Source: a virus (taxonomy: Duplodnaviria; Heunggongvirae; Uroviricota; Caudoviricetes). Taken from it: DNA of 64,000 nucleotides. Position numbers: made by a program. This document shows positions 36,001 through 45,000 of the stretch, one piece after another. Numbering within the stretch: position 1 is the first letter of the stretch; every line of letters starts with the position of its first letter. Where the stretch lies: IMG/VR virus record IMGVR_UViG_2693429637_000011, one strand, 5' to 3'.

Positions 36001-39000
36001 TCTGCGGTTCGGTCAGTGGCACTCTGATGTTTTTCTCCACCCATGCCAGCGCCTTATCACGCTCAATGGCGTTAACCCGGTCGCATTTTTCCTTCGACAA
36101 CTTCATGCCCGGAACGACAGGTTTGCCATCCACCAGGATGGCACCGCGGCAGATAGTCCAGATACCCGCACCATCACGGTATGCCGTGGTGTGGTTACCT
36201 TCTTTTTCGTCAAGAAACTGGTCGAGGATTTCAGGCGCAGAAGCGCCCGCAGCAATCAGCGCCAGAACGACCGCTGATAAACCATAGCGGAATTTCCTGC
36301 TCATCAGCTTACTCTCCCCGCGCCGCCTTACGCCGGTCCTCTTTGATTTTGAAATACAGGTTAGTCAGGTACGTCAGCAGCCCAAACAGCAGACTCCCCA
36401 GCACGCCTATTGCCGCCCACTGAGACGGGGAAACCCTGTCCAGCAACTGCAGGAACCAGTAGCCCGTTCCCACCGCTGACGTGGTGTATGACACACCTGT
36501 TGTGATTTTTTCCATCTGGTACATACCCCGTCTCCCGCAATCCGGAAGCTCACAACAATATAAAGACCACCGGCACACACCGATGGTCCCTTGCGCATGC
36601 TTACATCATCATGTCGCTGTCAGGTGTAGGTTCACCGCCATCTGAAGCACTCCCGTCACCCGCGATACCTTCCGGCTCAGGAACCGCTGGTACGCCCAGC
36701 AGCTCATCCAGAATGGCATCCACTTCTGCATCAAGACGCGACTCAAGGTTCTGGCGAAGTTTCTGTTTCAGTGCGCTCCGGACTTCTTCAGAGCGCAGGA
36801 CTTCCTTCACTGCCTCTGCAGTGACCAGGGATGTGATTTCTGACATGGGATTTTCTCGCTGAAAGGGGTTGTTAAGGAGTAACGGGCTCTTCGGGTTTGC
36901 TTCCGGCTGACTGACTGGCGCTGATTTTCTCAGCGGCCCTTTTATCAATCTGCCTGCACCAGAAATCGCGCACAGCCCTGTACCCACCCGAAAGAAGATA
37001 CAGCACACAGACCGCCGTACAGAAGTACAGCATCACCTGATGAATAAATGTCATAATTTCTTACCGTTATGGTTGACAATGAGAATTGTTTTCATTTAAA
37101 AACCAATGTACGAAAGCATCTTTTCTTTACATTCTCCATTGGGATTACCTCCGCCAGCTTCCATTCCTGCCGCTGGCGGCTTTTTTTAGCAATTATGCGG
37201 CTGCTCCAGCTTTGTTTGCTTTAACTTCCACCGTATCAATAAGTACAGGGTAGGTTTCTGCACTACCTGTAATATCCGTAATGACAAACCTGTTGAGTCC
37301 ATTAGCAGTATTGGCCCATTTCACCAGGTCAAACGCCTGTCCATCCACACCATCGAGCACCGGAGTAACATTAATGCTGTTACTGCCCTTAAATTTAAAT
37401 GCAAGCGTATGCCAGTCATGGTCGAATGCGCCAAACGTGCCAAGTTCTTTTTGTTGATTAACTGTATGATGGTATGCAACATTAATACTGGCTTTATCTG
37501 TCTGGACAAAGAAAGAACTCAGATGGCCTTCACCACCCTCACCCGGCCATTCCGCTATTCGCCAGTACAAACCAAAGGCATACTTGTTTCTGGTTGTCTC
37601 AAGATTGACGTTTTCGGGGATTTTAAACCGGACAGCAATTTCTCCGCCTTTTTCCAGTAAAAGTTTTGCCTTGTCTGCAGCAATATCACAGTACATTGAC
37701 CAGGATTTCGCGCTGTTATTTTTCTCAATTCGCAGAGCTTTATTGCCGCTGTCATCAACCAGTGTGCGCCTGCCATACACACCGTCCCAGCCATAGGGTT
37801 TCAGCTGATTGTCTGTAGCTTTTTTGGCATCGTAAAAAATTACAGACTCTGAGGTGGTAACCGGTCTGTCTGGAACAACCACCCCGGCAGTACCATTAAC
37901 AAACGCAGAAGACTTACCCGCGCAGCTCAGAATCGCAGTTGCCAGACGGTCGGAAATAATCCCACGGCGAGCCCATGAACTGAAATGGCTCGCCCTGTCC
38001 TGTGACGTCCAGGTGGCTGAGCTGTCACGCCATTTCGAACCGTAATAACCGATACCCGGAATGTCCGGGTCTTCTTCCGGTTTGTTCGTCGGCACATTCA
38101 CCCCGTTCTCATCGGTCATGAACGGTACGAAATGGATATTCTTTTCCGTTTTATTTTTATAGCTGCCGTACACCGTCTGGTACGTGGATTCGTTCTTCTG
38201 CTTCCAGAAATACGTCGTGTCCCCGCATATCCAGGGAACACCGCCAGCAGAGCCACCGACGCACTGGCCTGCCATATCCGCCAGGTCTGCACGGAATTTA
38301 TCAACCAGCGCACCAAACTGTGCGGCATGATTTGCCGGCGTACCGCCAAAATCAAATTCCCCCTGCATCCACACCACGGCAAACAGCACATTTTTCGGGT
38401 TCTTCTCCAGTGCCGCTTTTGTTCGACCGATAAGGTCCTTATACAGCGGCTTGTCCACACCCCAGCGGGTTGAATTCTCCGAGGCGCCACTCGCGTCACT
38501 GTATGTGCCATCAGCTCCGGTGGTGAACGCTGAACCACCACGACAGCACGGAACCAGCAGAATGCCCGCATTCGCCGGTATAAACGGCAGCAGTTTTTTG
38601 GCGATATGCAGCCCCTGCCCCACGGTTCCGTACTGCCCCTTTGACAGGTCCGCTTTCGGATGGTTAAGACGGCTCATGTCCTGCACATCATGCAGACAAT
38701 GGTCCGCCGGAATGATGTCGTTATATTTGCATGCTGCACCGCCCGGTGTCACCGTACTGCGACGCGCTAACTGTTTAATACGTGGATCAGGGCTGTCGAA
38801 TGTATCCGGTAATGGCAGTCCCTCACCGTATGACATACCATTGGACTGACCAGCAAGCGCGATCACATAGTAATATTCTGGCGCAACAGAAGGCGCTGAG
38901 GTCGTCGGACGGTTGCCTGGCTCCTCTGGTGATGAGATGCTCCCCTCACTCACAACTGGCTGGATGAACTCCGCACCATAACCAGCTGTCGAAATCAGCG

Positions 39001-42000: not shown

Positions 42001-45000
42001 CCGCCATTCTTAATGCTCCAGCCCTGCGCAGCAGCGTCTCCGGCTGTCGGCAACAGGGAGATTGTGCGTATGGATGCATCTTCAGACGGCCCCGATGGCG
42101 TGTCGCCGCCGGGCGAGGGTTTGATTTCCGGTGCCTTACCACTAATGAAGGCTAAGGTGCGACCGGCTACGTTCAGAATAGCAGTTGCCATACGATCGGG
42201 AATAATGCCACGACGCGCCCATGAGCTGAAATGCGTCGGGCGATTTGATGATACCCAGTTTTTGTTCGTTCGGGATGCCGAACCGTAATAACCAGACCCG
42301 GCAATATCAGGATCTTCTGACGGGTTGTTTGTCGGTGTATTAACTCCGCTACCATCGGTCATAAAGGGAACAAAATAAATCTGCTGGGATTCTTTACCTT
42401 TATATGCACCATATACCACTTCATATTGCGTACCGTGTTCTTGTTTCCACGCGTATGTCGTGTCGCCACAAATCCAGGGGACTGATGCCGGACTTCCACC
42501 GTGACACTGCGCCGCCAGCCCGGCAAGGTCAGCACGGAACTGCTGTACCATTGCAAGAAATGCTGCTGGCTGCTGGGCGTAACTGGCATTCGTCATATCG
42601 AATTCCCCCTGCATCCAGCATATCGCCAGCAAAACGTTTTTCGGGTTTTTCTGCAATGCTGCCTTCGTGCGGAAAAGCAGATCCTGATATAACGGCTTAC
42701 CCACTCCCCAGCGAGCCGAATCCTGACTGGCCCCCGTGGACTCGCTGAATGTCCCCTCCGTGCCCTGGGTGAATGCCGAACCACCACGACAGCATGGTAC
42801 CAGCAGGATCCCCGCATTATTAGGGATATACGGAAGCAGTTTTTTGGCAATATGTAAGCCCTGTCCGACACAGCCGTACTGCCCTTTGCTCAGGTCAGCC
42901 CGGGGATGGTTAATCGTACTCATATCCTGAACATCATGCAGACAATGGTCAGCAGGAATGATGTCGTTAAATACGCATACTTCACCACCGGGAGTCACTG
43001 TGTTACGACGGGCCAGTTGCTTAATGCGCGGATGGGGCGCATCGTATGAATCCGGAAGCGGAAGACCTTCACCGTAAGCCATGGCATTGGATTGCCCGGC
43101 CAGTACGATGACGTAGTACCACTCCGGCTCAGTTGCACCACTGACGACCACATCACCTTCTGCTGCAATCGCCTGCATCAGGGTATAAGGGGTTATGGCC
43201 ACCGGACTACCAAACGGCTGCCAGCCCTCCTTCAGTTTTTGTGTCAGTCGTTTCGCAAGGTCTGACGGCGATGCCGCCCTGACCACGTCATAGTGTTTAA
43301 ATGCCATGAATCCTCCCGGCCGGGATAATATTGTGAGTAAAATAAGGAGCGGGCTGAAGTCCGGAAGTTACAGGACAATGGCAGAAGAGAGACGACAGCC
43401 CGCAATTCGAAAAAGACCGCGCAGTTGCGCAGAGTGATTACTATGGGGTATTATTCGCCAGCTGAAATATTACTTCACGTTTTATTGTTTATTCCTTGCC
43501 GCCCGCGTCTCCCAGCGCGGGCTTTTTTTGCCCACAAGAAAACCCCTCCGGAGAGGGGCTAAAGCCGCGTATCTGTATCATCATGCACATGGTGCCGGGT
43601 GCCTCCCGGTGAGTTCAGCCCGGTGCCACTAAACCCGCGTCATTCTCGTTTTGATAATCAGAGATTATACCGTCACCAGTCGCCCCTCCGCTCAGGGGGA
43701 TTCACCATGCGAAATTTTTTTAACAAATGCCCAGTCTGACAGGCAACTGTCAACTTACTGAATTGTGAGCAACATAGCATTTAACGGGGAACCTGTTTTC
43801 TGCAGTAAAAAGGCCCACCGGAGCGGATGGGCCTGGAAGGATGAGGTAGCCTGAGTTTAACGGACACTCCTTCCTGAAATAGAATGGCATCAGAAGGAGC
43901 TAATAATGAGCAGAAAAACCCAACGTTACTCTAAAGAGTTCAAAGCCGAAGCTGTCAGAACGGTTCAGCAGAGTGATTACTATGGGGTATTATTCGCCAG
44001 CTGAAATATTACTTCACGTTTCATTGTTCATTCCTTGCCGCCCGCGTCTCCCAGCGCGGGCTTTTTTGTCCATAAGAAAGCCCCTCCGGAGAGGGGCTGG
44101 AGAGTGGCGCTATGTGCCATTGCATGGTGCCGGGTGCCTCCCGGTGAGTTCAGCCCGGTGCCACTAAACCCGCGTCATTCTCGTTTTGATAATCAGAGAT
44201 TATACCGTCACCAGTCGCCCCTCCGCTCAGGGGGATTCACCATGCAGTTTTTTCTAACAAATTCTCATCCGGGCAGACAACATTCAACTGACTTAATTGT
44301 GAGGTATGTAACATTCCCGTTGAACGGATACAAAAAAAGCCAGCCACCAGGGGAGGCTGGCAAACTCGTAGAGCAAAATGCTGTTACGCAAACTTCGTTA
44401 CAGGGTTATCCTGCAATACTTAAAATATACAATATTTAGAAAACTAATAGTGCCATATGAGATTTTTAAGATTTTGTTATTAATTGCGGTCGTACCTTCC
44501 TTTCTGTGTACTTTCCGTATAGCTCACAGGATTCTGGGTACAAAAAAACCCGCGCATCGGCGGGTTCGGCTGCGTGGCAATGTAACCACTCTTATCATGA
44601 TATGCAGATTTTTACGATCGTAAACTATTTTTTCGCTGATAAAATACAGAGCTTCTCCCTCCCGGCAATTCACGCTCAACATACCGATCCATCTCAAGCC
44701 TCACTCCCAGCATCATCAGCATGCCTTCAACAATCCCCTCCGCTTTGTGAAGGCGTTTACCTATACAGGTGTCAGAGCACCCATGTTTCCGTGCCAGCGC
44801 CATGAACGTCTCCCCCAACACGTAGTAATCAACCAGCAAGTCATGCAGATCGCGATTGTTCCGGTAAAGGCGGGCTATGCACCCGCATATCACCATCGCA
44901 TCATCGTCACAGCACTGTGGACGTGATTTTACTTTTTCGGGGATCAGTCCCTTAAATCCGGCAGCAATGGGCGACCATGTAACATCCTCATAGTTATTTA

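Follow-up and report, generated by a model that had tools for sequence, protein, structure and literature searches.

How did the late operon of one lambdoid prophage come to carry two different NanS-p-type esterase genes, each with a holin gene downstream? The question arises from IMG/VR virus record IMGVR_UViG_2693429637_000011 (Caudoviricetes), of which a stretch of 64,000 nucleotides (hereafter the window) was analysed. The window holds a 933W/phi24B-like podoviral lambdoid prophage without stx. An initial inspection of the letters (the sequence-only reading) had described its late region as a duplicated nanS-p and holin module; the open reading frame (ORF) map and Pfam recovered both esterase genes named there, of 636 and 617 aa, and the comparisons below led us to a different account of how they came together. 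Most likely, the locus is a recombination scar, in which this stx-negative, 933W/phi24B-like prophage captured a second esterase-holin cassette from a defective prophage of the Shigella sonnei kind, riddled with insertion sequences (IS). We read it as everyday mosaicism among prophages that happens to have left unusually clear scars, and not as a gene duplication. All components are known (NanS-p, S21 holin, YdfR, STnc100, ISSso4, and IS600); what is new is their arrangement, which for a lambdoid prophage is unremarkable in kind.

A foreign block between Q and nanS-p

All late-region genes in the ORF map lie on the minus strand and are transcribed from high to low coordinates; features below are on that strand unless stated otherwise. 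In the direction of transcription, the order is Q, STnc100, an IS600 stub, a second STnc100, nanS-p (617 aa), a holin gene, ydfR, a stub of the endolysin gene R, an istA stub, a third STnc100, nanS-p (636 aa), DUF1378, DUF826, a holin gene, R, Rz/Rz1, and the head genes. The range given by the sequence-only reading (37193-43307) takes in the middle of this structure but omits the distal holin and the upstream half. The start of the late operon is marked by the Q933-type antiterminator gene Q (144 aa, 44612-45046; PF06530, E 4e-50), which is annotated as a coding sequence in the corresponding prophage of O104:H4 strains.

That O104:H4 prophage (NZ_CP027394, about 451-510 kb), which adjoins ynfF and a truncated ynfG, is the unmodified form of the window prophage. 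Positions 36200-39526 of the window are 99.97% identical to it and positions 43968-45200 are 100% identical, and these two matches overlap by 302 bp on the O104:H4 reference. Relative to the O104:H4 prophage, the window therefore has an additional 4,441 bp enclosed by a 302-bp duplication. Elsewhere in the part of the window that was compared (about 4200-52500), the order of the O104:H4 prophage is kept at 95-99% identity, so that the two are 95-100% identical and collinear over the roughly 50 kb compared. They share Q, one STnc100, nanS-p 636, DUF1378, DUF826, S, R, and Rz/Rz1, whereas the O104:H4 prophage is without the 4,441-bp insert and has the 302-bp stretch in single copy.

The insert (39527-43967) lies between Q and nanS-p 636 and is bordered on both sides by a perfect 302-bp direct repeat, here called U. 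In local BLAST, the Q-proximal copy (43968-44269) was 100% identical to the second copy (39225-39526), which contains the third STnc100, and both map onto a single stretch (6026-6327) of the O104:H4 locus L002. This non-coding stretch is the only true duplication at the locus, and its 3' edge lies in the stem of a small hairpin (39227-39214). Between the repeats are a 1,137-nt ISSso4 remnant, a 3.2-kb donor block, and a 125-nt IS600 remnant; the donor block comprises an endolysin 5' stub, ydfR, a holin gene, nanS-p 617, and one STnc100 gene.

The remnant of ISSso4 (IS21 family; 39527-40663) retains the left end of the element and about 302 of the 511 istA codons, with the rve domain, and is 99.9% identical to annotated ISSso4 istA over 39525-40663. 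With istB and the right end absent, it is a remnant and not a mobile copy. Its left end abuts the endolysin stub, and the element is cut after about 1,137 nt. The truncated istA frame reads 10 codons into U and stops at 39494-39496, which bears out the proposed fusion of an istA frame to a repeat. The same early reading took one IS21-family remnant as the separator of the two gene sets; the ISSso4 remnant is indeed present, but a second stub was missed. This is the IS600 (IS3 family) remnant at 43842-43966 on the plus strand, which consists of nucleotides 1-125 (the left inverted repeat and the first 20 orfA codons, 100% identical to annotated IS600) of an element of about 1.26 kb that carries orfA and orfB when complete. 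It occurs once in the window, its strand is opposite to that of the late operon, and its intact end faces the donor DNA.

At the joint between ISSso4 and U, the dinucleotide GA is the sole common sequence, and at the joint between IS600 and U one extra base (43967) precedes the parental sequence. Judged by their sequence, both outer joints are illegitimate (non-homologous), and because they lack homology the cassette appears to have been gained through illegitimate recombination. Each IS element is truncated internally on the side away from the donor DNA and keeps its intact end on the side that faces it, and this rules out the IS-mediated routes that were considered, namely a composite transposon, adjacent deletion, exchange between IS copies, and simple transposition. 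A homologous crossover within STnc100 was likewise rejected as the left joint, since the 125-nt IS600 stub and the extra base intervene.

Probable source of the block in a defective Shigella sonnei prophage

Seven loci were compared with positions 40379-43966 of the window; four of them (L007, L008, L010, and L015) are 100% identical to it over 3,588 bp, IS600 site included, and in these four a complete IS600 occupies the same site as the 125-nt stub of the window. Two of these donor-type records are S. sonnei FORC_011 (CP010829) and ATCC 29930 (CP026802). The defective lambda-like prophage linked to trpABC in S. sonnei shares with the window the IS600 site, STnc100, nanS-p 617, the holin gene, ydfR, and the junction between the R stub and ISSso4. 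It differs in that its IS600 is complete and a second IS600 interrupts its ISSso4 at 285 nt. Furthermore, the block is preceded there by a 273-aa Q, a methyltransferase gene, and a partial STnc100, whereas the block in the window is preceded by Q933.

The R stub at this junction (40661-40713) is the 5' end, 17-18 codons long, of a signal-anchor-release (SAR) endolysin gene; the 100% match to an rrrQ-type lysozyme gene ends at 40661, and the fused ORF continues to 40543. The sequence-only reading had placed a YdfR-like gene and then a truncated IS21-family element behind the 617-aa esterase gene, an order that stands, although it overlooked this stub in between. The exact 56-aa ORF of the fusion, which led to these donor-type loci, is listed in 196 blocks of an assembly collection, 75 of which have contigs >1 Mb. 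Each of the nine places shown holds Q (273 aa), the methyltransferase gene, nanS-p 617, a holin gene, DUF1327, and the R stub; in the six that adjoin trpABC, a complete IS600 separates the methyltransferase gene from nanS-p 617, and the other three are without that IS600 and have lambda-like tail genes downstream.

An intact version of the donor cassette (nanS-p(617), holin, YdfR, lysozyme, and Rz), without IS elements, is found in a lambda-like prophage of E. coli 042, and positions 40661-43842 of the window are 99.4% identical to that locus. The same order of holin, DUF1327, and SAR lysozyme characterizes the lysis cassette essQ-ydfR-rrrQ of the K-12 Qin prophage, a type that is intact in E. 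coli 042. Unlike that cassette, the one in the window has a lysozyme gene that breaks off at codon 18, and it lacks its spanin genes.

These comparisons suggest a sequence of steps. The donor prophage beside trpABC would already have held IS600 and ISSso4 insertions, the latter splitting the endolysin gene. A 4,441-bp piece reaching from nucleotide 125 of IS600 to about nucleotide 1137 of ISSso4 would then have been copied into the Q/nanS-p intergenic region, and the recipient sequence at the insertion point would have been duplicated over 302 bp. This could have happened by two template switches during replication, with an exit at the end of the 302-bp stretch, copying of 4.4 kb of the remnant, and re-entry 302 bp upstream, or by two separate illegitimate exchanges among replicating phage genomes. 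An O104:H4-type phage may have met the remnant in a Shigella host, which would fit a published report in which ynfG is the integration site of 933W-like Stx1 phages from Shigella.

The window encodes a RecE-like exonuclease VIII (690 aa), RecT, and a YqaJ exonuclease at 58442-62272 on the plus strand. Phage recombinases of this sort reportedly drive the uptake of DNA from defective prophages (De Paepe et al., 2014), in a study that dealt with diverged homology. Diverged homology of this kind is not seen at the joints of the window.

Two NanS-p paralogs from two prophage types

The acquired gene (41454-43307) and the resident gene (37193-39103) encode proteins of 617 and 636 aa, respectively, each with the layout DUF1737, SASA, and DUF6645. 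Both match NanS (3PT5; E 4e-122 for the 617-aa and E 4e-118 for the 636-aa protein) in an alignment of about 320 residues, and both match the NanS-p C-domain structure 6YP6 (E 8e-30 and E 7e-42, respectively). PF08410 and PF20350 are present in both, so that each combines an N-terminal DUF1737 with a C-terminal domain of the 6YP6 type, and both genes sit in the lambdoid late operon between Q and holin. The serine of the GQSN motif (Ser73 and Ser87 in the 617- and 636-aa proteins) and the block IV histidine of HFSS (His359 and His373) align to the NanS active site. These two are reported to be the catalytic residues in the NanS structure paper, and they were matched to the chain numbering. Loss of either residue in one paralog had been named by the sequence-only reading as something that would speak against it, and both proteins keep both.

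Could the two genes nevertheless have arisen by tandem duplication of a nanS-p and holin module in place, followed by divergence? Two co-oriented nanS-p/holin pairs 4.2 kb apart, with similar upstream regions, have the look of such an event. However, the nanS-p DNA cores are 72-74% identical and the proteins 53% identical overall, as against 100% for the 302-bp repeats and 96% DNA identity for the holin genes. Each copy is also matched, identically or nearly so, in a prophage of another type: the O104:H4 prophage encodes the 636-aa protein with 100% identity, and the 617-aa protein has three amino-acid differences from that of E. coli 042. The layouts around the two differ as well (ydfR-R in the proximal set, DUF1378-DUF826 in the distal one), and IS stubs at both ends of the foreign block make two novel junctions, not one head-to-tail junction. 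That the 617 block is found with 100% identity in an unrelated prophage remnant of S. sonnei in practice refutes tandem duplication, which we regard as extremely improbable, and the early description of a duplicated module is accordingly not upheld.

Identity between the paralogs is unevenly spread. It reaches 94% over the first 34 residues, drops to 19% in the DUF1737 loop and first linker, rises to 71% in the catalytic domain, and falls to 36% in the C-terminal domain, in agreement with the earlier view that the N-terminal and SGNH regions are shared and the remainder diverges. Both C-domains match 6YP6 yet diverge from it and from one another. NanS-p has been published as a shuffled three-domain protein, with RASH and RPTH variants of block IV (PMC10462455); the 617-aa protein has the RPTH variant. 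A possible difference in binding specificity between the paralogs, as suggested earlier, is a reasonable idea, and the published domain swapping is consistent with it.

Known NanS-p proteins (933W p42, phi24B gp84 = vb_24B_21, and the O104:H4 alleles) have the same layout of DUF1737, a NanS-like SGNH domain, and a 6YP6-like domain, and their genes likewise sit between Q/stx and holin. The window differs from these prophages in having two different alleles in one late operon, whereas the published surveys and the collections searched have one per prophage. The activity that defines NanS-p is removal of the 9-O-acetyl group from Neu5,9Ac2 or mucin sialic acids, and the O104:H4 alleles have reportedly been assayed by others.

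The N-terminal domains of the two proteins are of different types. In phi24B, DUF1737 forms a capsid-decorating hexamer with Tyr42 as anchor in a long loop and a SISSP processing motif after Gly54, the last ordered residue (2026 preprint). The 636-aa protein has these features (a long loop, Tyr42, Gly54, and SISSP at 55-59), and the loop of the 617-aa protein is three residues shorter and has no SSP motif. Among seven sequences compared, the long-loop type occurs in podoviral phages and prophages (phi24B, phi296, Stx2-86, and the O104:H4/window prophage) and the short-loop type in long-tailed ones, namely the E. coli 042 prophage, one Stx1a phage, and the S. sonnei remnant, whose tail genes are lambda-like. 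Going by these sequences, the resident 636-aa protein alone would decorate the capsid, and the 617-aa protein is probably a free enzyme only.

The NanS-p of the podovirus Stx2-86 (NC_008464 1727-3622) is a natural chimera, with at least the first ~120 residues, reaching into the catalytic domain, of the 636 type and the C-terminal part of the 617 type. Its sequence suggests that the N-domain, which binds the capsid, remains tied to the type of virion and that the remainder is exchanged. Two further observations concern similar genes elsewhere. A complete ISSso4 in E. coli E21 (NZ_CM143892, about 3078.6-3083 kb) leaves only the DUF1737 portion of a nanS-p gene, with a holin-YdfR cassette immediately downstream; this is an independent ISSso4 event in a similar late region. 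The Stx1a-converting phage Stx1_JNE122137 (LC727895.1, 93,555 bp) has two separate NanS-p-like matches and may be a tandem or composite prophage.

Occurrence of the arrangement and weighing of its origin

Megablast searches with the whole 9-kb stretch that holds the insert and with three junction windows gave no match to the arrangement in 5,426 complete E. coli genomes, a collection that excludes Shigella and whose silence therefore weighs less. The best matches to the 9-kb stretch were O104:H4 strains, with 60% coverage and in the single-cassette form. E. coli E21, the sole genome with >80% coverage of 39300-41500, was tried as a second instance and rejected for its different layout. The arrangement-specific junctions were absent from 50,697 phage records, the exact junction strings had no match in GTDB representatives, IMG/VR, or JGI metagenomes, and exact look-up gave no matches for the IstA fusion (with three start codons) or the 32-aa IS600 OrfA fusion. 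We found no published report of the stacked layout; stacked layouts built from other alleles were not searched for.

Junctions found nowhere else might point to an assembly chimera, in which the 617 block really exists only at a trp-linked defective prophage and was spliced in by the assembler. The genome likely has further copies of IS600, ISSso4, holin, and STnc100 that could confuse an assembler. Nevertheless, mis-joins arise at shared sequence, and here one joint has 2 nt of homology and the other one extra base; two such joints would be needed, with re-entry into the same prophage 302 bp upstream of the exit. Moreover, the 1,137-nt ISSso4 stub exceeds the 285 nt present at the S. sonnei loci that were read and so could not simply have come from such a place. 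Joints without shared sequence and an ISSso4 stub longer than at the usual locus make an assembly artefact unlikely, and we rate it as distinctly improbable.

The direction of change could also be reversed, with the stacked form the older one and the single-cassette O104:H4 type derived from it. Deletion between perfect 302-bp repeats would be easy and would yield the exact O104:H4 sequence. Against this, prophages with a single cassette are widespread: the assembly collection lists the exact 636-aa protein in 1,145 blocks, all ten of its neighbourhoods that were read are single-copy with no stacked form, and the Q-to-nanS-p intergenic region has the single-cassette form in at least 62 complete E. 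coli genomes, while the stacked form is known from the window only. In addition, the IS stubs of the insert have complete forms in S. sonnei, which marks the insert as secondary, and the event is likely to be recent, given that the repeats have kept 100% identity. This order of events is very unlikely.

Capture from an S. sonnei-type remnant remains our preferred account, and four points weigh against it or against its details. In all nine fusion loci, a second IS600 cuts ISSso4 after 285 nt, while the stub in the window is 1,137 nt long; the direct donor would hence be an earlier or sister state of the S. sonnei remnant, which was not found. The arrangement-specific junctions were seen nowhere else in the collections searched, and the structure rests on one assembly. 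The 302-bp flanking duplication may have come about by either of the two routes given above, neither of which the sequence favours. Finally, the rule that ties N-domain type to capsid type is based on seven sequences. The history is still unusually readable, as recipient and donor are both identified at 100% identity and the event left non-homologous joints and a 302-bp flanking duplication. It offers a clean natural case of a functional-looking temperate phage capturing DNA of a decayed resident prophage; the arrangement itself raises no new question.

STnc100 genes and the shared upstream region

The sequence-only reading had given both esterase genes the same upstream region of ~420 bp. Local BLAST and a repeat finder confirmed it, with 93.7% identity between 39086-39519 and 43290-43728. 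This region is what normally separates stx (or Q) from nanS-p, and it carries STnc100. The window has three full-length STnc100 genes (RF02076) within 5 kb of one prophage, all covering model positions 1-206 with 160.7-165.1 bits against a gathering score of 47. Copy a (44068-44273; 165 bits) is the parental gene, and copy b (43530-43739; 161 bits), about 90% identical to copy a and 535 bp from it, came with the insert. Copy c (39325-39530) is identical to copy a except for the first 4 nt, its native 5' flank having been replaced by istA sequence. From these sequences, duplication of the parental gene accounts for copies a and c, and copy b is the newcomer. Two STnc100 matches lie 487 bp apart at the E. 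coli 042 locus (L003), so adjacent copies occur outside the window too.

STnc100 is related to the PasD small RNAs (sRNAs) found upstream of the esterase gene (2026 preprint, bioRxiv 10.64898/2026.05.13.724894). Published work places STnc100/PasD 75 nt past stx2 and ahead of the esterase gene (PMC12370729; bioRxiv 10.64898/2026.05.13.724894), and the copies in the window, which lie upstream of nanS-p, agree with this. According to the Pas survey, however, PasD copies are far apart and not in tandem, whereas the window has its three STnc100 genes within a few kilobases and one of them without its native 5' flank. A search of the region for AgvB, AsxR, and other Rfam sRNAs gave none, even at E 0.1. 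Just past the 3' end of each STnc100, the plus strand has one and the same strong, terminator-like hairpin (GCCCGCG...CGCGGGC followed by a T run), at 39297-39318, 43501-43522, and 44040-44061. These hairpins may be terminators for antisense transcription; no plus-strand gene is evident there for them to serve.

Holins, lysis genes, and predicted expression

The acquired holin gene (41088-41303; PF04971, E 2e-32) and the resident one (36309-36524; PF04971, E 1.5e-32) each encode 71 aa. They are 96% identical in DNA and one residue apart (R61K). Both proteins start with MYQM, with the dual start Met1/Met4, as in pinholins of the S21 type (class II). The early claim that a holin of the phage-21 type follows each esterase gene is right as to type. 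It applies directly to nanS-p 617, but the resident holin gene is separated from nanS-p 636 by DUF1378 (36872-37054; from the annotation of the identical O104:H4 locus) and DUF826 (36601-36846; from Pfam and the same annotation). The ydfR-like gene (DUF1327; 40769-41083; PF07041, E 5e-39), of 104 aa, follows the acquired holin gene.

Only the distal holin has an intact SAR endolysin partner. This is the resident R (35771-36304; PF00959), whose N-terminus is hydrophobic, as is typical of SAR endolysins. It is followed by Rz (34977-35435) and the embedded Rz1 (35030-35215), which were assigned from Phage_lysis and Rz1 Pfam matches, respectively, on identical genes in loci L016 and L025. The intact set of R, Rz, and Rz1 is thus confined to the distal holin, as had been proposed, but the proximal cassette keeps the R 5' stub.

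All parts of the insert except the IS600 stub are co-oriented with the late operon, which would allow read-through of the whole stretch. If the operon behaves like those of 933W-type phages, RNA polymerase modified by Q would, upon induction, transcribe from the late promoter across the insert and on into the resident genes for lysis and head. Two predicted 9-O-acetyl-sialate esterases, catalytically intact by their residues and with different lectin-like C-domains, would then be made. The second holin gene would double the pinholin dose, and lysis would still depend on the single resident endolysin and spanin. Recombination between the perfect 302-bp repeats would excise the insert cleanly and restore the common parental form.

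A stronger proposal is that the stacked operon is functional and maintained and not a passing scar, with two released (even displayed) esterases, different in their lectin-like domains, widening the range of O-acetylated mucin glycans that the phage binds or strips, and with the STnc100 intergenic stretch serving as a reusable joint for stacking late-region cassettes and sRNA copies; we consider this quite unlikely. Having two NanS-p variants that differ in capsid-binding and lectin-like domains under one promoter would be handy for experimental comparison.

Other features of the window

At the right end, a tyrosine integrase gene (62837-64000, plus strand) reaches the window end, so the window stops inside the prophage, short of the host junction. 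A C4 antisense RNA (RF01695) and isrK (RF01394) lie side by side at 47284-47471 (minus strand), next to an ORF6N/antirepressor gene (46559-47230). This pair is a P1/P7-like immunity RNA arrangement, and the O104:H4 prophage has the same. A sok antitoxin RNA (RF01794, 117 bits) was found at 49349-49523 (minus strand), and hokD is annotated at the matching O104:H4 position.

Between Rz and the terminase genes, a histidine-phosphatase gene (34282-34896, plus strand) runs opposite to the late-operon strand; it is moron-like and is annotated in O104:H4 as lipopolysaccharide core heptose(II)-phosphate phosphatase. The tail gene region ends with an ORF of 2,783 aa (4654-13005, minus strand), which corresponds to an LPD38 domain-containing protein in the O104:H4 annotation. 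Near an antirepressor gene at the left end of the window, positions 377-466 (plus strand) match sRNA-Xcc1 (RF02221) with 67.5 bits.

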